Positions 13,365 through 32,000 of a stretch of 32,000 nucleotides of DNA are shown one piece after another; within the stretch, counting starts at the first letter, position 1; every line of letters starts with the position of its first letter. The translations under genes and the position numbers were made by a program. The notes under the pieces are model-generated. The model made no database searches. It was not told the DNA's origin and saw only the letters and a program-made list of their open reading frames with translations. The stretch comes from Candidatus Electronema halotolerans (lineage in GTDB: Bacteria; Desulfobacterota; Desulfobulbia; Desulfobulbales; Desulfobulbaceae): contig OW818675.1 in the NCBI GenBank assembly GCA_942493095.1, positions 1,740,001-1,772,000 of the forward strand, written 5' to 3'.

Positions 13365-14443
13365 GCAGGGGCATGGAAGAGCAGGTGCTTGGCCTGCTGA
13401 CCGGTCCCTGCGGCGTGACTGTAGGAGCGGGCATTGCTGCCGCAGTCTCCGGCGGCCCGGATTCAATGGCCCTGCTCCATCTGCTGGCCGCAGCGCAGGA
13501 GCGGCTCCAGCTTCGGCTGACTGCGGTCTGGATTGAGCACGGCCTGCGTCCGCAGGAAACTTCGCAGGAAAAAGCAACAGTTGCGGCAGCGGCGGCCAAG
13601 CTGGGCATTCCTTTTCTATCCCGGCAGGCGGATGCGGCGGCCTTGGCCAAGAGCAAGCGGCTTTCCTTGGAACATGCGGCCCGCGAGCTGCGGTACGCTC
13701 TGCTGCGCGAGGCGGCTGGCAACTGCGGGGCGGAATGGATTGCGGTCGGCCACACCGCCGATGATCAGGCTGAAGAAGTGCTGCTCCGCCTGCTGCGCGG
13801 CAGCGGTCGCAAGGGCTTGGCTGGAATGCAGATGCGCAGCGGCGCAATCATCCGCCCGCTTCTGCGCACCAGCAAGCAGGAGCTGGTTGACTGGCTGAAC
13901 GAGCGCGGCATCGCTTCCTGTTTTGATTCGTCAAACAATGACCGGAGATTTCTCCGCAACCGGGTGCGGCACGAGCTGCTGCCCTTCTTGGAGCAACATT
14001 TCGAGCCGGGCATCAAACAAGCCCTGCTCAAGACTGCGGACAGTCTGGCTGCGGATGAAGTGCTGCTGGAGGAGCTGACTGAAAAGGCCTTTCAGGAGAC
14101 AGTGCAGGAGCTGACTGGGCACAGCAGTCTGCTGCCGACCATGCGCCTGCTGCGTCAGCCCTTTCTCGCCTTGCCTGCGGCCTTGCAGCGGCGGGTGCTG
14201 GAGCAGCTGCTCTGGCGCATGCAGAGCCGGGCTGCATACAATCATATCATCCTGCTGCTGGAAGCGGCGGCTTCTGGCAGAACCGGCAGCGAGCTGCATC
14301 TCAGCCAAGGGCTGCGGGTCGGCGTGGGCCGCGACTGGCTGGAATTTTCTTATCCAGCTGGCCGCCAGAGCTGGCGGGGACGACTCAACCCAGAACAAGC
14401 TGAAGCTGCTCATGCTCCAGCGGCTCGTCAAATTCCAGACTGA
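13361..14443 (+). CDS. tilS: tRNA(Ile)-lysidine synthase
   Basis: PP-loop motif AAVSGGPDSMALLHLL, then VGHTADDQAEEVLLRLLRGSG and FDSSNNDRRFLRNRVRHELLP. The GTG at 13361 overlaps the upstream stop. The ATG at 13373 is an alternative start. Confidence 0.85.
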   Translation: MSRGMEEQVLGLLTGPCGVTVGAGIAAAVSGGPDSMALLHLLAAAQERLQLRLTAVWIEHGLRPQETSQEKATVAAAAAKLGIPFLSRQADAAALAKSKRLSLEHAARELRYALLREAAGNCGAEWIAVGHTADDQAEEVLLRLLRGSGRKGLAGMQMRSGAIIRPLLRTSKQELVDWLNERGIASCFDSSNNDRRFLRNRVRHELLPFLEQHFEPGIKQALLKTADSLAADEVLLEELTEKAFQETVQELTGHSSLLPTMRLLRQPFLALPAALQRRVLEQLLWRMQSRAAYNHIILLLEAAASGRTGSELHLSQGLRVGVGRDWLEFSYPAGRQSWRGRLNPEQAEAAHAPAARQIPD

Positions 14444-16670
14444 GCTTGTATTCTCCAGCAGCCTCCAGCGCAGCCGTTTTGGTTGGGGCAGGGTCCGCCT
14501 GCTTGATGGACAGCACTTGGCCCCGGACATCCAAGCCGTTGGGACTGCCAACCACAGGAATGGTGATCTGCATGGTCCGGCCCAGCAGCACCCGGATATG
14601 CTTCTGCTGCATCATGCGGAAGGTCATGGACAGGCCGCCTCTGGAGACATCGGCCAGCCTGCCTTTGAATTTCTGGCCAAGGGGGCGTTTGCCCGGCACT
14701 TCCAGAACCTGAAAATCAACCTTGCGGGAGACCTCATAGCGATCAAAGGCGCGGCGGTTGAGACCTTTGCGCTGAAGCAGGTCTCTTATGTTATTTGATT
14801 TATTATAAAACGTCTTTAATTTTTTCTCCAAGCCGGGATAGGCTTCCTTCCAGCGTTCAAAGCAGGCGCGCTTCAGCACGGAAATGCGGCTTTCTGTGAC
14901 CGCATTCATGCTCACAGTCCAGACCGAGGTGTCAAAGAAGTTTTCCCCAGCCAAGTCGCCGTCGCAGAGGCTCTTGATATAAATTTTCCGGTCATGCTTT
15001 TTATAAAAAACCCGGACCGTGCCATGATTGACAAAAAACAACTCATCATTCTGATCACCCTGCTTGACCAGCATCTCCTCCGGCTCCAAAGTGCGGTGCT
15101 CCAGTTCATGATAAATGGCGCTGAACTCCTCAGAACTCAGCTCATGCAGCAAGTTGGACCAAATATCCAAATAGCTGCGCACCTGCACTCCGCTTTTCGC
15201 CTCTTCAATCAGCTCTGAGGCCCGAATGATCTCGGCAATGGCGTTGGGGTTGATCTCGCTGAAGCGTTCCCGCAGCCGTTCCGCGTTGAAGATGTCCTCG
15301 TTCTGCACGCATTCCATAATCAGCTTAAGAAGCTGCTGGGCAGCCCCAGACCGGTTGCCGGACATGGCCATGCGGATGATGCCTGCCTCGCGGGCGGCAA
15401 AGGGATTGTTCTGGCTCGGCACATCCGGCGAGATGCTGCCGGCCCGCTTGTGCTTGCCGCCGGTATTGATGAACTGGATGGCCTGCTCCGCTGTCCGCAG
15501 AATCTGCTGCTCCACCTGACCAAGTTCTTTGCCAGTGCTGGCGGCGATGATTTTTTTCAGAGTCGGCACCGCCTTGACGGAACCAATCTTGCCCAAGGTG
15601 AGACAGATGGCAAGCTGGAGGTTCTGCCCGGCCCGATTTTTGATCAGAACCGCCTCATCGAGCAGAATAGCCAACGGCGCAACCAAGCTGCTGTCCGGGA
15701 TGTCGCCGATCAAGGCCACCACCAGCTCGGTCAGCTGCCGGGGCACTGTTTTCAGGGCCCTGAGGAAAAAGTCCTTTTTCCCCGGCGCATCAATCCGGCT
15801 GGCCGCCCGCAGCACTTCTCCCTTGACCCGGATATCCTCATGCTCAATAAACGAAGTCACGGCAGTGAAGCAGGCTGGCCCGCCCTTGTCGCCCAGCAGG
15901 CGGATGATGTTGCGGATCAGGTACCAGTCCTGGGTCTGCTCCAGCAGGCGGCAGAGGCTTTCCTCTGCTGGCGGGCCGATCTCGCTGAACAGTTTGAGCA
16001 GGACATCGGCCTTGTTTTCCTGATACAGTTTCAGGCACTGCGGCTCCAAAAGAAACTCGGCTGCTGACCGGCCAAGCACGGCAAAGAGCCGTCCGGCATC
16101 CACGCTTTTGTCCTTGTCATACAGATATTCAACTAAGAGCAGCTCCAGCAGGGGCCGGGTGGCCATGTCATTGAGCAGCCGCCCGATGCGGTCGCGGACA
16201 TGCTCAGGCGCGGCGGCCAGTATCTTTTCTGAGGAGAACGTCAACAAGGCGCGCCGGGCAGAGGCGTATTTGCCCATTTCAATCTGATAGGCGGCAAAGG
16301 CGGACAGGGCCGTGACAAGCTGCCAGACTTCGACCTCGTTTTCCAAGGCCGCGTGCAGGGCGCTTTCCGCCGCAGGCAGCATCTTGTCGATCCGCAGCCA
16401 TTCCTGATGCGCAATGAGCAGCTCCAAGGTGTCAGTCAGCTCGCAGGCCGCCTTCAGGCGCAGCTGGGGACTGTCGGCTTGCAGCGCGGCAGCGAGCTGG
16501 CCAAGCATTTTGTCAATCTGCCGATTGTTTTTTTCTGCCAGAAGATCGCTGATCACTGCTGACAGCATCGCGCCCTCTTCCTCCTCCAGCGCGGTCTGAG
16601 CATCGGTTGAAAAAGCGGCCTTTTCTTCTTCGTCCGCCGCTGACAGTGCATTGTTGCGCGTGACATCCAT
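14385..16670 (-). CDS. Multidomain signalling protein: N-terminal HEAT/ARM-like repeats, cyclic-nucleotide-binding-like domain, C-terminal PilZ domain
   Basis: HEAT-like segments LLGDKGGPACFTAVTSFIEHEDIRVKGEVLRAASRI and LTLGKIGSVKAVPTLKKII. The CAP-like beta-barrel region reads MLVKQGDQNDELFFVNHGTVRVFY...GDLAGENFF (about nt 14850-15125). PilZ motifs are RRAFDR (RxxxR, nt 14739-14756) and DVSRGG (DxSxxG, nt 14634-14651). Confidence 0.75.
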   Translation of the reverse strand: MDVTRNNALSAADEEEKAAFSTDAQTALEEEEGAMLSAVISDLLAEKNNRQIDKMLGQLAAALQADSPQLRLKAACELTDTLELLIAHQEWLRIDKMLPAAESALHAALENEVEVWQLVTALSAFAAYQIEMGKYASARRALLTFSSEKILAAAPEHVRDRIGRLLNDMATRPLLELLLVEYLYDKDKSVDAGRLFAVLGRSAAEFLLEPQCLKLYQENKADVLLKLFSEIGPPAEESLCRLLEQTQDWYLIRNIIRLLGDKGGPACFTAVTSFIEHEDIRVKGEVLRAASRIDAPGKKDFFLRALKTVPRQLTELVVALIGDIPDSSLVAPLAILLDEAVLIKNRAGQNLQLAICLTLGKIGSVKAVPTLKKIIAASTGKELGQVEQQILRTAEQAIQFINTGGKHKRAGSISPDVPSQNNPFAAREAGIIRMAMSGNRSGAAQQLLKLIMECVQNEDIFNAERLRERFSEINPNAIAEIIRASELIEEAKSGVQVRSYLDIWSNLLHELSSEEFSAIYHELEHRTLEPEEMLVKQGDQNDELFFVNHGTVRVFYKKHDRKIYIKSLCDGDLAGENFFDTSVWTVSMNAVTESRISVLKRACFERWKEAYPGLEKKLKTFYNKSNNIRDLLQRKGLNRRAFDRYEVSRKVDFQVLEVPGKRPLGQKFKGRLADVSRGGLSMTFRMMQQKHIRVLLGRTMQITIPVVGSPNGLDVRGQVLSIKQADPAPTKTAALEAAGEYKLSLEFDEPLEHEQLQLVLG

Positions 16671-20082: not shown

Positions 20083-20532
20083 ATGCGGGCAGTGGTGCAG
20101 CGGGTCAGTTCAGCCAGCGTGACTGTGGCAGGCCGGAAGACCGGCAGGATTAACGCGGGTCTGCTGGTCCTGCTCGGCGTGCATAAGGAAGATGCGCCGC
20201 AGGATATTGCCTGGCTGGCGGAAAAGGTCGTCAATCTGCGCATTTTTGAGGATGAGGCCGGACTGATGAACCGCTCCCTTGCCGACACGGGCGGGGCCAT
20301 GCTTATTGTCTCGCAGTTCACTTTGCTCGGCGACTGCCGCAAAGGCCGCCGCCCCTCGTGGTCAGAGGCTGCGCCGCCAGAGCTGGCCAAGCAGTTCTAC
20401 CTTGAGTTCATTGAGGCGATCAAGCGTTGCGGCATCAGCACGGCCAGCGGCGAATTTCAGGCTATGATGGAAGTGAGCCTGTGCAACTCCGGCCCAGTGA
20501 CCATTCTTCTTGATTCACATAAACATTTTTAA
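20083..20532 (+). CDS. dtd: D-aminoacyl-tRNA deacylase
   Basis: Starts MRAVVQRV, then [15 protein letters not shown] and [23 protein letters not shown]. An AGGAG Shine-Dalgarno lies 7 nt upstream of the ATG at 20083. The 325-aa ORF-track version is an antisense-of-pdxA extension. Confidence 0.92.
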
Positions 20533-20578
20533 GAGCAGCGGAACGGCTGGCGGTTGTGGATAGGTTGAACTTGACAAA

Positions 20579-21160
20579 ATGGAACTGCAAATAAATGATA
20601 CTCAATTTAAAAATAGTTCAAATGCAGAAGTTGACATGGAACATCTGTTTGAAAATATATTTAAAAATATAAATGACTGGTTAAAGTTTGCGGAACAGAA
20701 GAATGTTACTTTATTGGTTTTGAATACAGGGATAGTTTGGGGTGTCAGCAGAATAATCAATAAAAATTTCTCTGAATCAAGTTTGATATTTAGCGGAATA
20801 GTTTTTGGCTATTTATTTAATTTTGTTTCAATAATAATATGTATAGCCTCATTTATGCCTGTTTTTACAGACAAATGGTTTAAGATGGAAGAAAAGAGAG
20901 AAAGTGACAATATTCTTTTCTTTTATGACATTGCCAAGTATTCTAAGAGGGAATTTTTAGAATTGGCAAAAAGGAAAGCTGGTATGAAAGAATACAAGTT
21001 TTCTGAAATAGAAAAAGACTATGCTGGTCAAATAGTAAACAATGCTGATATTGCATTAAGTAAATACAAGCAATTTAAAATTGCATCAAGGTTTACAATT
21101 ATTTCTATAATATTTTTCGTTATCTTTATAACGATTGCCTTGCTTGGAGATAAGCTATGA
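20579..21160 (+). CDS. Small three-TM membrane protein; candidate membrane effector of a cyclase-based (Pycsar-like) defence cassette
   Basis: Predicted TM helices are VTLLVLNTGIVWGVSRII, LIFSGIVFGYLFNFVSIIICIASFMPVF and FTIISIIFFVIFITIALLG. A ~70-aa charged helical segment lies between TM2 and TM3. GC is about 30%. The stop overlaps the cyclase start (ATGA). The N-terminal WLKFAEQKN...TM layout resembles the Pycsar-effector (DUF5706) / SLATT type from memory only. An alternative start is the ATG at 20636 (MEHLFENIF). Confidence 0.55.
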   Translation: MELQINDTQFKNSSNAEVDMEHLFENIFKNINDWLKFAEQKNVTLLVLNTGIVWGVSRIINKNFSESSLIFSGIVFGYLFNFVSIIICIASFMPVFTDKWFKMEEKRESDNILFFYDIAKYSKREFLELAKRKAGMKEYKFSEIEKDYAGQIVNNADIALSKYKQFKIASRFTIISIIFFVIFITIALLGDKL

Positions 21161-21969
21161 TTACTGAAACTCAATTGCCAGAAAAATATCGTGATATAAT
21201 AGATAATCAGGTTAAAAAATTTGATGAAAAATTCTCGAGAGAAATTTTTTCTCAGAAGATAAGGAAAATGGAAAGGATACCAAGTGCTGAGAATATTCCA
21301 ACTGAAGATTCTATAAGATGGATTCAAATTCCAGATGTAATATGCGTATTTGTTGATATGAAAAATTCAACCAAGTTGAGCGCATATAAACATGCAAGAA
21401 CAACAGCAAAAATATACACGTTGTTCACAGGGACGGCTGTAAGGATTTTCAGAGCATTTAATGCGTCTTATATAGATATCAAAGGCGATGGTATCTTTGC
21501 ATTATTTAATTATGATCAAGTTCATACATCTCTTGCATCGGCAGTTACATTTAAAACTTTTGTGCAAGATACTTTTTTAAAAAAAGTACATGAAATAGAT
21601 ACTGGAGTTCATATAGGGATACATCAGGCAACATTATTGGTGAGTAAGATAGGTCTTAAAAGAAATAAAAATAGAGATGATATGCACAATGAAGTTTGGG
21701 CTGGAAAAACTGTAAATATGGCGGTTAAACTTGCGAGCTTGTCAGAAAACAACGAAATAGTTGTATCAAATTGTTTTTATGAGAAAATAACATCAAGAGA
21801 AGCTCTTTATTGCTGCCGATGCTCATCAACTCAACTGTTATGGGAAGAACAAGATGTATCATCGGATGACAGATTTTCATTCGATAAAATAAATATATTA
21901 AAGTCACTCTGGTGTAAAAAACACGGAGCCGAATATTTACAAAATATCATAGATGCAGATAACTTGTAA
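21157..21969 (+). CDS. Class III nucleotidyl cyclase homologue (PycC-like candidate pyrimidine/purine cyclase) with a Cys/His-rich C-terminal extension
   Basis: The cyclase-homology-domain blocks occur in order. They are VICVFVD(67)MKNSTKL (metal Asp 1, nt 21355-21357), IDIKGD(111)GIFALF (metal Asp 2, nt 21487-21489) and GIHQATLLVSKIG..VWAGKTVN(187)MAVKLAS (nt 21715-21717 for Asn). A GGAGA Shine-Dalgarno lies at 21146-21150. GC is about 30%. Confidence 0.7.
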   Translation: MITETQLPEKYRDIIDNQVKKFDEKFSREIFSQKIRKMERIPSAENIPTEDSIRWIQIPDVICVFVDMKNSTKLSAYKHARTTAKIYTLFTGTAVRIFRAFNASYIDIKGDGIFALFNYDQVHTSLASAVTFKTFVQDTFLKKVHEIDTGVHIGIHQATLLVSKIGLKRNKNRDDMHNEVWAGKTVNMAVKLASLSENNEIVVSNCFYEKITSREALYCCRCSSTQLLWEEQDVSSDDRFSFDKINILKSLWCKKHGAEYLQNIIDADNL

Positions 21970-22200
21970 AGAATTATTCTCTCGTCATCCTTTTGAAATA
22001 CTGAGTTTTCTGCGAGCGGCAGATGACAGAAAATAGCTGCGAGATTGCTATTTTGACGAATACATTTTAAATATGGCTTTCACCGACTTCAACTCGCCTG
22101 ACGAAGTGCAGCAAGCATACAGCATCACGTATGCTAATAAGAATCCTGCGTTTGCCATGATGCACATCCTCACTCCATCCACCTGCACACATCATCGTTA

Positions 22201-22485
22201 ATGGCATTTCATTGGAACGAAAAGAAAAATGAAATATTGCGGAAAGAACGCGGCATCTCTTTCGAGCGGATCGTTGTTGCAATAGAGGAAGGGCATCTGC
22301 TCGGCATTCTTGAGCATCATAATAAAGAAAGATACGCGAATCAGATTGTTATTGTTGTGGAAATTGACGGCTATGCGGTCTGTGTTCCGGCAATCGAAGA
22401 AAAAAACGGCGACTTCTTCCTGAAGACGCTGTTTCCGAGCAGAAAATACACAAAGCAATACAAATTGAATGTGAAAAATGAATGA
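22201..22485 (+). CDS. BrnT-like (DUF497-type) toxin of a type II toxin-antitoxin pair
   Basis: The N-terminal FHWNEKKNEILRKERGISFERI matches the F-x-W-D/N-x-x-K-x-x-x-N-x-x-KHG-I/V-SFE signature of BrnT-type toxins. The C-terminal FLKTLFPSRKYTKQY parallels RIISARkAtkxErkxY. It overlaps the downstream antitoxin gene by 8 nt. Confidence 0.65.
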   Translation: MAFHWNEKKNEILRKERGISFERIVVAIEEGHLLGILEHHNKERYANQIVIVVEIDGYAVCVPAIEEKNGDFFLKTLFPSRKYTKQYKLNVKNE

Positions 22486-22750
22486 ACACGAAGAGAAAGA
22501 ATTGATCGCTTCAGTTGAAAACGAGGAGTGGACTTCTGTCAGCGATTTGGATTCTTTTAAAAAAAGACTGATGCGGGCCGCTGCTGAAACTACGGCAAAG
22601 GATTATCAAATCAATGTCAGAGTTTCCAAGCGGGATGCCGAGGCGTTAAAAACCAAGGCTCTGGAAGAAGGAATTCCGTATCAAGAGCTTGTGACCAGCA
22701 TTCTTCACAAGTACGTGACTGGCAGAATCGTGGAAAGGCAGGGTTGTTAG
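22478..22750 (+). CDS. CopG/RHH-type (BrnA-like) antitoxin
   Basis: The C-terminal ribbon-helix-helix segment INVRVSKRDAEALKTKALEEGIPYQELVTSILHKYVTG is typical of CopG-family antitoxins paired with BrnT-like toxins. Confidence 0.7.
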   Translation: MNEHEEKELIASVENEEWTSVSDLDSFKKRLMRAAAETTAKDYQINVRVSKRDAEALKTKALEEGIPYQELVTSILHKYVTGRIVERQGC

Positions 22751-26310: not shown

Positions 26311-26335
26311 CAGGTGATGGTGAACTGTGAGTGAT
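26311..26335. repeat. IS1-family terminal inverted repeat (left as drawn)
   Basis: CAGGTGATGGTGAACTGTGAGTGAT matches the reverse complement of 27178-27202 at 22/25 positions. Confidence 0.85.
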
Positions 26336-27072
26336 CAATTAAACAAAAGATTATTATTATAATCTTGAATGAACCTCCAGACAGATGCAGTTAAATTTTC
26401 GATGCTTCTCGAAAATGAAATGGTCTTTCTGACAAGTGCAGACAATCTTTGTCTGAATGTCAAATTGAGCCTTTCGATATGACTTGTTTTTCCGCTTCCT
26501 TTGCTGACAATTCTATGCCTTTCAGCTGGAAACACGCTCGAATAAGCGGCGAGTCCATCCGTAAAAAATATTCCGTTCTTTTTGCAATCTTCAGAAAGGG
26601 AGTCCCACAAGGCGGCTGCTCCTGCATTATCTCTTTTTCCAACATGATACCCGACAATAAGCTTTGTTCTTCTCTCGATAGCAAGCCATATCCAAATATC
26701 ATTTTCCTTGTCACCAACGAAAGTCCACATTTCATCGGCTTCGATGAAGATTTTTCCGTTGCGGGACATATTGAAAGCCTCTTTTTTGACTTCATTTCGT
26801 TTTTTTTTAACATATTCCTGAAGCCATCTTTTTGAGATGGAAACGGCTCTCGCAATCCCAGCCAATGAGATTCTTTCAACAAGAAGCTTATCAACTATGC
26901 GCCATTCAGCATCAGATATTGTTTTGTTCTGAGGATTCTCAACGAATTGACGTGAGCAGTCCTTACATAAAAATTTCTTTTTCCCATTCGCATTGGAGCC
27001 ATTTTTCACAATGACTGATGAACCACATCTTGGGCATTGCACAGCTTTCTTCTCCATGTTTGTTTTTTTCAT
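26335..27072 (-). CDS. IS1-family transposase (single fused ORF, 245 aa)
   Basis: N-terminal zinc finger CPRCGS...CKDCSRQF, then a helix-turn-helix region. DDE-type blocks are FIEADEMWTFVG, IFFTDGLAAYSSVFP and KTSHIERLNLTFRQRLSALVRKTISFS. Confidence 0.88.
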   Translation of the reverse strand: MKKTNMEKKAVQCPRCGSSVIVKNGSNANGKKKFLCKDCSRQFVENPQNKTISDAEWRIVDKLLVERISLAGIARAVSISKRWLQEYVKKKRNEVKKEAFNMSRNGKIFIEADEMWTFVGDKENDIWIWLAIERRTKLIVGYHVGKRDNAGAAALWDSLSEDCKKNGIFFTDGLAAYSSVFPAERHRIVSKGSGKTSHIERLNLTFRQRLSALVRKTISFSRSIENLTASVWRFIQDYNNNLLFN

Positions 27073-27177
27073 AATGACGGCTTGACATGCGCATCCGACG
27101 AAGAGCCGATGGGACAGAGAGCATCCCTTGCCGCCAGTATATTATATTTTCCATCAATTTCAACATATTTTCAACCC

Positions 27178-27202
27178 ATCACTCACGATTCACCATTACC
27201 TG
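27178..27202. repeat. IS1-family terminal inverted repeat (right as drawn)
   Basis: The reverse complement is CAGGTAATGGTGAATCGTGAGTGAT, with mismatches to the left repeat at positions 6, 15 and 16. Confidence 0.85.
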
Positions 27203-27209
27203 ATGATGA
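27203..27209. repeat. Target-site duplication, right copy
   Basis: ATGATGA lies directly after the right inverted repeat and extends to ATGATGACA (27203-27211). Confidence 0.75.
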
Positions 27210-27355
27210 CACGCTGCATTCAGCAGAAGAAAAGCGATTTTACGCACTCGGCAGAACTGACAGAGATAGACGGCTTTTTGTTGTTTTCACCATCAGGATG
27301 AATTTGATCAGAATCATTTCTGCAAGGGACATGAGCCGTAAGGAAAGGAAGATAT

Positions 27356-27628
27356 ATGGCGATGAAAAAAATTCCTAAATTTAAGAACGCAGACGAGGAA
27401 CGGGCATTTTGGCAGAAACATGACTCTGCGGAATTCATTGATTGGAGCAAAGCGGAACAGCTCGTTCTTCCTAAGCTCAAACCATCTGTTAAAAAAATAT
27501 CGCTCAGACTCCCTGAATCCATGCTGGAAGAGCTGAAGCTGCTGGCCAGAAAACGTGATGTTTCCTATCAGTCCCTGCTGAAGATGTTCTTGGCTGAACG
27601 GCTTGAAAAAGAGTTGGGCGCACACTGA
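27356..27628 (+). CDS. brnA: BrnA-type (CopG/RHH) antitoxin, apparently intact
   Basis: The sequence [23 protein letters not shown]...[39 protein letters not shown] is typical of BrnA. It overlaps the 3' end of the split brnT by 23 nt. The ATG at 27362 is an alternative start. Confidence 0.75.
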
Positions 27629-28667: not shown

Positions 28668-29480
28668 ATGACCCTGCTGCAATCCTTTGTCCTCGGTCTT
28701 GTCCAAGGACTGACTGAATTCATTCCTGTTTCCAGCTCCGGTCACTTAGTGCTGGTCCCGCACCTGCTCGGCTGGCATTTTCCAAAAGATCAGAGTTTTG
28801 TTTTTGATGTGCTGGTTCAGCTCGGCACTTTGGCAGCAGTGGTCGTCTATTATTGGCAGGACTTGACTGCCATAGCCCGCGCTTTCCTCCTTGGCTTGGT
28901 GCGGCGGCAGCCTTTTGCCGAGGCAGATGCCCGCATGGGCTGGTTCCTGATTCTCGCCACTCTGCCAGCGGTCGTCGTTGGACTGTTAGCCAAAGACTTG
29001 GTGGAACAGGCCTTTGCCAGTCCGAAAATGACCGGAGTCTTTCTGCTCTGCACCGCTATCCTGCTGCTGATTGCGGAAAAAGCAGGCAATCGTTGCCGCT
29101 CCATGCAGGAGCTTGATTGGAAGGACAGCCTCTGGATTGGCTTTTCCCAAGTCTTAGCCCTGCTGCCAGGCGTGTCCCGCTCCGGCGCGACCTTGGCAGG
29201 CGGCATGACCCGGCATTTGGACCGGCCTGCCGCAGCCCGCTTCTCCTTTCTGATGTCCGTGCCGGTCATGGTCGGTGCAAGTGTGCTGGCCGCAAAAGAC
29301 CTGCTCGATCTGCCTGCGCTGCATGATTTCCTCCTGCCTCTGCTGCTCGGCTTTCTCACGGCAATGGTCTCCGGCTATCTTGCCATCCGCTGGCTGATCA
29401 CCTATCTGAGCAGACATTCCTTGCACATTTTTGCCGGATACTGTGCCGCAGTCGGCCTGCTGCTTGTGCTGCTGCTGTGA
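28668..29480 (+). CDS. uppP: Undecaprenyl-diphosphate phosphatase
   Basis: Motifs GLTEFIPVSSSGHL and LPGVSRSGATL in a polytopic 270-aa membrane protein. Confidence 0.92.
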   Translation: MTLLQSFVLGLVQGLTEFIPVSSSGHLVLVPHLLGWHFPKDQSFVFDVLVQLGTLAAVVVYYWQDLTAIARAFLLGLVRRQPFAEADARMGWFLILATLPAVVVGLLAKDLVEQAFASPKMTGVFLLCTAILLLIAEKAGNRCRSMQELDWKDSLWIGFSQVLALLPGVSRSGATLAGGMTRHLDRPAAARFSFLMSVPVMVGASVLAAKDLLDLPALHDFLLPLLLGFLTAMVSGYLAIRWLITYLSRHSLHIFAGYCAAVGLLLVLLL

Positions 29481-29487
29481 GAAACGC

Positions 29488-31344
29488 ATGTGCGGCATAA
29501 GCGGCTTCGCGGCCTGCTTCCCTTCAGTCAGCCGGGAGCAGCTCCGGCGGATGAACAGCAGTCTCAGCCATCGCGGCCCGGATGATGCTGGAATTCATAT
29601 TTTCAACGAATCCGGCAGACCGGAAAAGCCGTGCGTTGGTCTGGCCCATCGCCGCCTGAGCATCATTGATCTGTCCGCTGCTGGTCAGCAGCCAATGGGC
29701 AATGAGGACGGCAGCCTCTGGATCAGCTACAATGGCGAATGCTACAACTATCAGCCCCTGCTGCACGAACTGAGTAAAGAAGGTCATGCGTTCACTTCAG
29801 CAACAGACACCGAAGTCCTGCTGCACGGCTATGAGCAATGGGGCTTGCGCGGGCTGCTGGAGCGTCTCAACGGCATGTTTGCTTTCGCCCTCTGGGATCA
29901 GTGCAGTGGAGAGCTGATTTTGGTCAGAGACCGGCTGGGCAAGAAGCCGCTCTATTATCTCCAGCAGGAGGACGGCACGTTGTTCTTTGCCTCGGAGATC
30001 AAAGCCTTTGCCGCTGCTGGCGTTCTTGATGCCCAAGATATAGACGCAGCAGCCCTGATTCAGTTCTGGTCGTATGGCTACAGTACCGGTGCCCGGACCA
30101 TGTACAAGAAGGTGCGCCGGGTTCTGCCGGGCCATTACTTGGTCTGGAAGGATGGCGGCATTTCTCAGCATGAATACTGGGATGTCCGCTTTGGCCTTGA
30201 TCCGGCTCCGCAGCGGACAATGGACGATCTGGCCGACGAGCTGGAGAGTCTGCTGACCGATGCGGTGCGCCTGCGCCTGATTGCTGATGTTCCAGTTGGA
30301 GTCTTTCTGTCCGGCGGCATTGATTCCAGCCTGATTGCCGCCTTGGCCGCCAAGGTGACGCAGGGCGGCATCCGCTCCTTTTCCATCGGCTTTGCAGAGA
30401 AGCAGTTTGATGAAACCCAGTATGCGCAAGCAGTTGCCGAGCATCTGGGCATTGACAACACCCTGCTCCGGGTCGAAGACAATCTTCAGTCTTTCTTCCG
30501 GCCCATTGCCCTCCATTTTGATGAGCTGTTCGGTGATTCCTCAGCCATTCCAACGTGGTTTGTCAGTAAGTTGGCCAAAGAGCATGTCACGGTTGCATTG
30601 ACAGGAGATGCCGGAGATGAGCTGTTTGCCGGTTATGACAGCTATGCCAAAGCATTGAGCATCTGGGGAACAAAAGAGCAGCGCAGACTCTTCAAAGGCC
30701 GGGTCAGCAAGTTCCAGCAGCTTGTTGATTTTCTCCAGCTCCGCTTTGTCCCGAAAGAGCAGCGGCTTTTGGCTCTGGAACGAATCATGCCTGCAATCTT
30801 CCTCAAAAAGGTCTTGCAAGAAGGTGTTCTCAACCCAGTCACTATCCAAGATGCTCTCCACGACAGGAAACAGTGGCAGGTGCGGGCTGCTGGAGCCGAC
30901 CTGCTCAGTCAGCTCCAATATCTCAATCTAAAGAGCTATCTGCCAGATGATATTCTTGTTAAGGTTGACCGGATGAGCATGGCCCATGCCTTGGAGTGCC
31001 GCAGCCCCTTGCTTGACTACCGGGTTGTGGAGTTTGCCGCCCGACTCTCCTTTGCTCAGAAAATCAGCCCGGAAGGCAAAGGGAAATATCTGCTGCGTCA
31101 TCTCCTACAACGCTATCTGCCAGAGCAACTCATTGATCGGCCCAAGATGGGCTTTTCCGTTCCTTGGTCTGAGTGGTGCAAAGGGCCGCTGGGACAAGAG
31201 ATCAAGGAGCAATGGCGCAGCATGAACACGCCTTGGTTCCGCAGCGAGGCCGCAGACCTGCTCTTTCCTGAACGCAAGCTGGGCTGGCCTGCGCGGCAGT
31301 GGAATGCCTTCTGCATTGTTAACTTTTTTGGCAATCAGTATTGA
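29488..31344 (+). CDS. asnB: Asparagine synthase (glutamine-hydrolysing) family amidotransferase
   Basis: The start was moved to MCGISGF (N-terminal nucleophile Cys2). The GATase-II region reads RGPDD..HRRLSIID. The PP-loop is VFLSGGIDSS. Confidence 0.9.
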   Translation: MCGISGFAACFPSVSREQLRRMNSSLSHRGPDDAGIHIFNESGRPEKPCVGLAHRRLSIIDLSAAGQQPMGNEDGSLWISYNGECYNYQPLLHELSKEGHAFTSATDTEVLLHGYEQWGLRGLLERLNGMFAFALWDQCSGELILVRDRLGKKPLYYLQQEDGTLFFASEIKAFAAAGVLDAQDIDAAALIQFWSYGYSTGARTMYKKVRRVLPGHYLVWKDGGISQHEYWDVRFGLDPAPQRTMDDLADELESLLTDAVRLRLIADVPVGVFLSGGIDSSLIAALAAKVTQGGIRSFSIGFAEKQFDETQYAQAVAEHLGIDNTLLRVEDNLQSFFRPIALHFDELFGDSSAIPTWFVSKLAKEHVTVALTGDAGDELFAGYDSYAKALSIWGTKEQRRLFKGRVSKFQQLVDFLQLRFVPKEQRLLALERIMPAIFLKKVLQEGVLNPVTIQDALHDRKQWQVRAAGADLLSQLQYLNLKSYLPDDILVKVDRMSMAHALECRSPLLDYRVVEFAARLSFAQKISPEGKGKYLLRHLLQRYLPEQLIDRPKMGFSVPWSEWCKGPLGQEIKEQWRSMNTPWFRSEAADLLFPERKLGWPARQWNAFCIVNFFGNQY

Positions 31345-31374
31345 TCAATATAAATAATTACAAGGTGATTATCG

Positions 31375-32000
31375 AATGAAGCATGAAATATCAAATGATT
31401 TATGGAATATACTTATATGTAGTTACTGTGGATGTGAAATAGAATCACATGAAAATGGAGCTAAATGCTTTAAATGTAGTACTTATTATCCATGTACCGA
31501 CTATGGATCACTCGATCTTCGTTTAAAAAAGTGTAAAAAATATAGCCTCGAGTTTAACATAGGTAACGATCTGTTTCCAGATAAAAAAAATGATTTTAAA
31601 CCATTGCCTATAAATAAAGATAGTTGGATTGATTTTTCTAAAATCAATTATACAGGAAATCTTCAGAAGGAAATTATAAGTTTTTTTCCGAGACCAAAGA
31701 ATGATAAGAGCAAAATGCTTGACCTTGGTTGTGGTAAAGCTGTTCATAGAGAGATTTGTGAGCATGCAGGTTTTATTTGGACAGGTTTAGATTATTATTC
31801 AGATAACGCCTTAATATTAGCGGATGCTCATTCTCTACCTTTTAAGGATAATTCATTTGAATTTATCTTTTCATATGCAGTGCTTGAGCATATTAGATTT
31901 CCTTTTATAGTTATGCGTGAAGTTCATAGGGTCTTACAGCCTGGTGGAAAATTCATAGGTACAGTTGCATTTCTTGAGCCATTTCATGGCAATAGCTTTT
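31375..32000 (+). CDS. Class I SAM-dependent methyltransferase with an N-terminal Cys-rich zinc-ribbon-like segment; the 3' end lies outside the window
   Basis: This ORF is not in the ORF track because it has no stop in the window. My own translation is MKHEISNDLWNILICSYCGCEIESHENGAKCFKCSTYY...MLDLGCGKAVH (motif I)...LPFKDNSFEFIFS...VLQPGGKFIG. An AAGGTGA Shine-Dalgarno lies upstream. GC is about 33%. Confidence 0.75.

Follow-up and report, generated by a model that had tools for sequence, protein, structure and literature searches.

An AT-rich two-gene cassette of the cable bacterium Candidatus Electronema halotolerans is very probably a horizontally acquired clade D Pycsar anti-phage system

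Introduction

What is encoded by the two short, strongly AT-rich genes that follow dtd on the chromosome of the cable bacterium Candidatus Electronema halotolerans (Desulfobulbaceae)? They lie in a stretch of 32,000 nucleotides (GenBank assembly GCA_942493095.1, contig OW818675.1, positions 1,740,001 to 1,772,000 of the forward strand), here called the window, the first letter of which is position 1. The deposited annotation lists the products of the two open reading frames (ORFs), through 100%-identical proteins of Candidatus Electronema halotolerans, as 'hypothetical protein' (ORF1) and 'Guanylate cyclase domain-containing protein' (ORF2). A first-pass annotation of the window had gone further and read the pair as a horizontally acquired Pycsar (an antiphage resistance system based on a pyrimidine cyclase) module in which a membrane effector accompanies a class III-type cyclase. 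It had also suggested that the pair may be an undescribed subtype, distinguished by the effector gene in first place, the very small size of the effector and the divergence of the cyclase.

Comparisons of profiles, sequences and structures lend strong support to the core of this reading; the suggestion of a new subtype is not sustained. The cassette is an ordinary clade D Pycsar system of a described type that had not been annotated before. We consider it highly probable that it is a canonical two-gene anti-phage system of this clade, acquired horizontally as an AT-rich module of approximately 1.4 kb, with a mechanism that we infer. Clade D belongs to the scheme of Tal et al. and is matched by 'Pycsar-2' in a newer one; the clades are used as defined by Hou et al. 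2024 (PMC11224242) and in a 2026 preprint (10.64898/2026.08.12.744502).

Two overlapping genes of deviating base composition

The sequence-level claims of the first-pass annotation were all reproduced. Both ORFs are present on the forward strand (Table 1), and the hand-counted G+C contents proved exact, with 39 of 60 nucleotides at positions 20101-20160 and 18 of 60 at positions 20581-20640. Over the entire genes, the GC fraction is 0.284 in ORF1 and 0.320 in ORF2, compared with 0.589 in the neighboring dtd gene and 0.592 in the neighboring nitroreductase gene, such that a cassette with 28-32% GC is embedded in a chromosome with approximately 59% GC. At third codon positions the values are 0.27 (ORF1) and 0.24 (ORF2) versus 0.71-0.73 in the flanking genes. 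Because open frames of 270 and 193 codons have probabilities of only about 1e-11 and 1e-8, respectively, at the base composition of the cassette, the two ORFs did not arise by chance. The Shine-Dalgarno sequence of the second gene and the overlap of the two genes were found, by reading the sequence, where they had been placed. An identical 4-bp overlap occurs in the nearest relative of the cassette and in many related loci. ORF1 and ORF2 form one operon. A search of the region revealed 7 promoter-like sites versus 8.4 expected in shuffled sequence, a number not above chance, and the promoter/terminator scan disclosed no terminator 3' of pycC.

Table 1. Positions of the cassette features within the window (aa, amino acids)
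Feature	Position	Strand	Description and basis
Candidate sigma-70-like promoter	20571-20599	+	TTGACA-17-AATGAT; weak evidence
pycTM (ORF1)	20579-21160	+	Pycsar membrane effector; 193 aa from ATG 20579 or 174 aa from ATG 20636
Transferable module	20589-21985	+	83% DNA identity over 1399 bp (blastn versus L083, L084, L085)
Translational coupling region	21146-21160	+	GGAGA Shine-Dalgarno (21146-21150) within pycTM; ATGA (21157-21160), overlap of pycC start and pycTM stop
pycC (ORF2)	21157-21969	+	270 aa; clade D (Pycsar-2) pyrimidine cyclase, predicted uridylate (cUMP) cyclase; profiles, sequence, model
Asp67 codon	21355-21357	+	First metal-binding aspartate (AnPycC D62); mapping onto 8JSZ
Asp111 codon	21487-21489	+	Second metal-binding aspartate (AnPycC D106); mapping onto 8JSZ
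C-terminal zinc ribbon	21814-21924	+	Cys3His; Cys220/Cys222/Cys253/His256 = AnPycC C221/C223/C260/H263

ORF2 is a clade D PycC cyclase

ORF2 belongs to the PycC family. The PADLOC model PDLC00763 matches the protein over its full length (residues 1-269, aligned with 1-266 of 268 model positions, E = 1.5e-113), and ten further PADLOC PycC models match as well. The Pfam profile Guanylate_cyc (PF00211) scores 30.9 bits, which is above the gathering score of 21.9 but weak. In a sequence search of solved structures, 8JSZ ('uridylate cyclase') was found at 2e-66, followed by 7R65 at 1.7e-5. The same two PycC enzymes were the best two matches of the AlphaFold2 model of ORF2 (predicted local distance difference test score, pLDDT, 88.6; predicted template modelling score, pTM, 0.86) in a Foldseek comparison, in which 8JSZ ranked first (E = 1e-28, template modelling score, TM-score, 0.82) and 7R65 second (TM-score 0.71), with all housekeeping adenylyl and guanylyl cyclases at lower ranks.

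The 8JSZ structure is that of AnPycC, a clade D PycC, which shares 49% identity with ORF2 over 243 aligned positions. AnPycC and the transmembrane (TM) protein AnPycTM constitute the AnPycsar system of Anabaena sp., which made cUMP and protected E. coli from phage, and for which phage resistance by abortive infection was demonstrated (PMC11224242). The cassette resembles AnPycsar in its two-gene composition of cyclase and TM effector, and ORF2 resembles AnPycC in its architecture. The model of ORF2 displays an N-terminal helical extension, with helices 9-23 and 28-33 ahead of a core of the class III cyclase type. This core is followed by a C-terminal zinc ribbon, the region of which has high pLDDT values, and a C-terminal helix lies at residues 257-269. 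The hosts of the two systems differ, one being a cyanobacterium and the other a Desulfobulbaceae cable bacterium. The gene order might also differ, since PycTM is located downstream in most of the sampled cyanobacterial loci but upstream in the cassette.

Residues Asp67, Asp111, Asn187 and Lys191 of ORF2 occupy the positions assigned to them in the first-pass annotation. When ORF2 is mapped onto 8JSZ, the two aspartates coincide with D62 and D106, the conserved metal-coordinating residues of AnPycC (PMC11224242). Phe65, Lys69, Lys109, Phe114 and Ser194 correspond to F60, K64, K104, F109 and S195 of AnPycC, and the four zinc ligands align as well, so that all AnPycC residues named in PMC11224242 are kept (11 mapped positions). 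The catalytic centre is intact, with the D67/D111 pair in place and K69 and S194 retained. For AnPycC, the residues required for cUMP production were verified by means of an F60A/K104A/F109A triple mutant, and the zinc-site mutant C221A/C223A/C260A was devoid of both cUMP production and defence (PMC11224242). The Cys3His zinc ribbon is conserved in clade D, and clades A, B, C and E lack it (PMC11224242). In an alignment of ORF2 with 19 relatives of 47-85% identity, no variation is seen at D67, D111, F114, K191 and the zinc ligands C220, C222, C253 and H256, and next to none at S194; F65, K69 and K109 do not form invariant columns.

BcPycC of Burkholderia cepacia (7R65), a clade B cUMP synthase, is a more distant counterpart that shares with ORF2 the fold, the dimer-forming N-terminal helix and the product, which is known for BcPycC and predicted for ORF2. 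Unlike ORF2 it lacks the zinc ribbon (PMC11224242), its identity to ORF2 in the Foldseek alignment amounts to only 19%, and its partner is not a TM protein but PycTIR, an NADase in which a domain that binds cyclic nucleotides (CNBD) is joined to a TIR domain. ORF2, with a single cyclase domain, an N-terminal helical extension and a TM effector instead of a CNBD-TIR effector, displays the features of the Pycsar-2 subclade, which has been modelled as UTP-preferring (10.64898/2026.08.12.744502). The product of ORF2 is predicted to be cUMP.

ORF1 is a PycTM effector

ORF1 belongs to the PycTM family. Against the Pfam profile PycTM (PF18967, 'Pycsar effector protein') it reaches 34.9 bits, with a gathering cut-off of 27.2. 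In PADLOC, ORF1 is matched by the 'Effector 2TM' model PDLC00668 (7.6e-44), by another 'Effector 2TM' model (1.5e-35) and by three PycTM models (6e-27 to 1.5e-21). These profiles and the 4-bp overlap with pycC identify ORF1 as the adjacent effector of the cyclase. A scan of both ORFs against NCBIfam yielded no meaningful match, and a search of the Protein Data Bank (PDB) with the sequence of ORF1 returned zero matches.

The first-pass annotation had assigned three TM helices to ORF1. In a Kyte-Doolittle profile, strong hydrophobic segments appear at residues 68-96 and 172-190, approximately, and a weaker one at about 42-59. The AlphaFold2 model (pLDDT 82.6) consists entirely of helices (4-59, 68-90 and 143-192) and accommodates all three segments within long ones. 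Three TM helices are a reasonable count because the literature assigns PycTM to the pJV1-spdB3 family and describes it as a 3-TM protein (10.64898/2026.08.12.744502); the weakness of one segment and the '2TM' label of the best-matching PADLOC family are small caveats. The loop at residues 97-171 contains 17 Lys/Arg residues, versus 1 in the loop at residues 60-67. According to the positive-inside rule, basic loops are assigned to the cytoplasm, which would place the 97-171 loop and the N-terminal region, the latter with the invariant motif FKNINDWLKFAEQKN, on the cytoplasmic side. A cytosolic nucleotide would then be sensed at the N-terminal region or the large loop of ORF1.

The open frame of 193 codons exists as claimed, but its start codon is uncertain. 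ORF1 begins at Met20 (ATG 20636, 174 aa) in the deposited annotation as well as in the gene call of Logan, and the candidate promoter, if real, favors this start. Arguing against it is the conservation of residues 7-19 in the nearest homologue.

The '2TM' label brings to mind another defence system, CBASS, an antiphage signalling system based on cyclic oligonucleotides, which with 2TM effectors likewise follows an abortive-infection logic based on a nucleotide second messenger. In contrast to CBASS, the cassette has no CD-NTase and its signalling enzyme is a class III-type cyclase. CBASS was rejected: none of the CD-NTase models of PADLOC matched any of the four ORFs scanned, and ORF2 matched PycC models only.

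The cassette is a transferred module

The nearest relative is a metagenomic gene pair (P0122/P0002, loci L083-L085) that has the same gene order and the same 4-bp overlap and encodes proteins of 188 and 270 aa, which are 75% and 85% identical to those of the cassette. The DNA outside the shared segment (Table 1) is not shared with this relative, which resides in a different genomic context, flanked by other genes, with a periplasmic-binding-protein gene downstream and without a BrnT/BrnA-like pair. In L083, too, the cassette (27-32% GC) deviates from its flanks (45-58% GC). Since the similarity is limited to the shared segment, the transferable unit consists of the two genes, without a mobility gene. 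The base composition (0.28-0.32 versus 0.59), the occurrence of the module in another context and its absence after dtd in three loci demonstrate that the cassette is of foreign origin.

At the cassette there are no tRNA genes and no Rfam matches as marks of insertion, and the flanking direct and inverted repeats are only short AT-rich chance matches. The phage collection contained no close relative, with one match at 26%, and plasmids contained only distant homologues (26-34%, actinobacterial and Paenibacillus), so that no transfer vector was identified.

Three other cable-bacterium loci (L086, L087 and L088, the dtd loci of Ca. Electronema sp. V4 and JC) contain no Pycsar genes after dtd. 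Two of them carry in this place a 402-aa protein with SLFN_AlbA_2 and HATPase_c_4 domains, followed by a CbiA/AAA_31 ParA-like ATPase, and the third carries DUF1847. Synteny is poor on both sides of dtd, and the loci therefore do not represent a clean empty site. Together with the Pycsar and toxin-antitoxin genes of the window, these loci suggest that variable cargo, possibly related to defence, occupies the site after dtd in cable bacteria.

The cassette is not a new subtype

Does the cassette differ from known Pycsar systems in a way that would justify a new subtype, as the first-pass annotation had suggested? Each of the three proposed differences turned out to be the norm in clade D. Gene order was determined in a sample of 80 genome loci that encode relatives of the cyclase, from Gammaproteobacteria, Cyanobacteria, Bacteroidota, Chloroflexota, Acidobacteriota and others. 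A word-indexed homologue search with ORF1 retrieved 7 proteins only; PycTM homologues in the 80 loci were found with an iterated hidden Markov model seeded with ORF1 and run on the ORFs of the loci. A co-oriented PycTM homologue adjoins the cyclase in 74 of the 80 loci, across many phyla. The remaining 6 loci, which were searched for PycTM homologues, are mostly truncated or very divergent. Among the 74 paired loci, approximately 40 are effector-first (L007, L014 and L019 by coordinates, for example) and approximately 34 cyclase-first, and the closest relatives of the cassette are mainly effector-first, often with the same 4-bp overlap. A TM gene followed by the cyclase gene has been called 'a typical Pycsar system' (2026 Nucleic Acids Research paper, PMC13069673). 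With 174-193 aa the effector is of usual size, as PycTM homologues beside related cyclases mostly comprise 160-220 aa. Lys191, held to mark a divergent cyclase, is invariant among the relatives, and AnPycC also has a lysine in this place ('NMAAKLASL').

In seven of the sampled loci (L010, L011, L022, L023, L050, L055 and L056) a second, divergent cyclase of 233-255 aa is encoded between the clade-D-like PycC and PycTM, where it fills approximately 0.75 kb and keeps the FxD and GD motifs. Pycsar loci with multiple cyclases have already been mentioned in the Pucsar preprint (10.64898/2026.08.12.744502).

What remains in favor of an undescribed subtype is the weak match to the generic Pfam cyclase profile, the lack of an NCBIfam model for either protein and the fact that the system goes unrecognised in the deposited annotation. 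These points are outweighed by the end-to-end match to the PADLOC PycC model and the 49% identity to a characterised enzyme, in addition to the gene order, effector length and clade-wide lysine discussed above. An undescribed subtype is already largely refuted, and we regard it as extremely improbable.

Proposed mechanism and alternative explanations

The following scheme is modelled on characterised homologues. PycC would form a head-to-tail homodimer stabilised by the N-terminal helices and the C-terminal zinc ribbon. Phage infection would activate the dimer, which would cyclise UTP to 3',5'-cUMP with the aid of two divalent metal ions bound to Asp67 and Asp111. The cUMP would be sensed on the cytoplasmic face of PycTM. 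This pJV1-spdB3-family protein with three TM segments probably forms an oligomeric, hexamer-like assembly in the membrane. This assembly would open or disrupt the inner membrane, and the infected cell would die or stop growing before phage is released, which is to say by abortive infection.

Several observations weigh against this view of the cassette. In a PDB library older than the PucTM hexamer, Foldseek found nothing significant for the model of ORF1, the best match being unrelated helical proteins at E = 0.36. The idea of a hexameric pore leans on a preprint about a related branch, in which EcPucTM is described as a hexamer of protomers that each contain three TM helices, with a central channel and an abortive-infection-like phenotype (10.64898/2026.08.12.744502); even there, the action of the cyclic nucleotide on TM effectors is left unsettled. 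ORF2 has a seven-residue insertion near the N-terminus, REIFSQK, that distinguishes it from AnPycC and is common to the nearest relative only. Finally, the cassette is far more AT-rich than its host, which could mean that it is poorly expressed or silenced.

The last point leads to an explanation in which the cassette would play no present part in the phage defence of its host, being either a relic of foreign origin that is inactive or silenced or a selfish module of the addiction type. The third-position GC content is consistent with it, as are the lack of a promoter signal above chance, the toxin-antitoxin-like genes that adjoin the cassette and the toxicity of overexpressed AnPycsar in E. 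coli (PMC11224242). Arguing against it, both ORFs are intact, all catalytic and zinc residues are conserved and the translational coupling is preserved. Moreover, the 83%-identical DNA copy in another genome encodes both proteins in full length, which suggests purifying selection. We consider it very unlikely that the cassette is such a relic or selfish module. A different kind of doubt concerns the nucleotide. In the PucsarTM system (EcPucC and EcPucTM), a Pycsar-related cyclase is paired with a 3TM effector of the same pJV1-spdB3 family but makes cGMP and belongs to a different subclade (10.64898/2026.08.12.744502). Nucleotide specificity has diversified among Pycsar-related cyclases, and that of ORF2 is itself a prediction; cGMP or cAMP might activate the TM effector in the cassette. 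Pucsar enzymes are recognised by a guanine-compatible base pocket (PfPucC E/G118 and K195; PDB 37UE) together with membership in their subclade, which is sister to Pycsar-1 and not to the Pycsar-2 subclade. The nearest characterised enzyme to ORF2 makes cUMP, the equivalents of F60, K104 and F109 are kept, and the N-terminal helices, the C-terminal sensor/zinc ribbon and the pairing with a TM protein only fit the modelled, UTP-favouring Pycsar-2. The closest characterised relative and the architecture point indirectly away from Pucsar, and purine signalling appears highly improbable.

Two further variants retain the Pycsar assignment but alter its use. The N-terminal insertion might change the trigger or the preferred nucleotide, or the host might have given the system a new role. 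Cable bacteria are centimetre-long multicellular filaments, the cells of which share periplasmic conductive fibres. Collapse of the membrane of an infected cell by PycTM might act as a 'circuit breaker' at the level of the filament, an unexplored consequence of abortive infection. Neither variant is favored by any of the data, and even taken jointly they are quite unlikely. The canonical clade D Pycsar system is the explanation we prefer.

Other features of the window

Just 3' of the Pycsar cassette, at 22201-22750 of the forward strand, two small overlapping ORFs encode proteins of 94 and 90 aa (GC 0.41-0.45). The 94-aa protein shows a weak BrnT-toxin-like match (21.8 bits, below the cut-off of 34.5) and the 90-aa protein a CopG_antitoxin/BrnA match (28.4 bits, at the cut-off of 28); they are probably a divergent toxin-antitoxin pair of the BrnT/BrnA type. 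This pair lies outside the DNA shared with the nearest relative, which marks the low-GC patch as a small island of composite make-up.

A second low-GC patch (0.43-0.48) extends from 26335 to 27628. It contains an IS1-family transposase (26335-27072, reverse strand; DDE_Tnp_IS1 2.5e-21, with an InsA zinc ribbon) followed by a clear second BrnT/BrnA pair, consisting of BrnT at 27037-27378 (50.4 bits) and BrnA at 27356-27628 (CopG_antitoxin 1.5e-31). In this BrnT the match is confined to residues 58-103, which cover the model's C-terminal half; either the start is perhaps wrongly set or the insertion sequence may have truncated the gene.

At the end of the window (31358-32000, forward strand, GC 0.40), directly preceded by an asparagine-synthase-like gene (29431-31344), an ORF of at least 214 codons runs past the last position. 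Its product has an N-terminal CxxC...CxxC and a 'LDLGCGKAV' motif resembling that of S-adenosylmethionine-dependent methyltransferases, and it may be another acquired gene. A few kb upstream of the cassette, the reverse strand at 14385-16670 encodes a protein of 761 aa whose domains are HEAT_2 (weak) and cNMP_binding. It has a host-like GC content, is separated from the cassette by the housekeeping genes maf, tmk, pdxA and dtd, and is probably unrelated to Pycsar signalling.

Significance

Within the library of papers searched, none links Pycsar with cable bacteria. The analysis adds little new biology and neither opens nor resolves a general question. It corrects the functional annotation of two genes in a closed cable-bacterium genome and puts on record that an AT-rich Pycsar module can be very compact (approximately 1.4 kb), has no mobility genes of its own and occurs in unrelated genomic contexts. 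The value of this is modest and lies in annotation and in the ecology of cable-bacterium phages, where the cassette may interest those who study the phage pressure on uncultured filaments.

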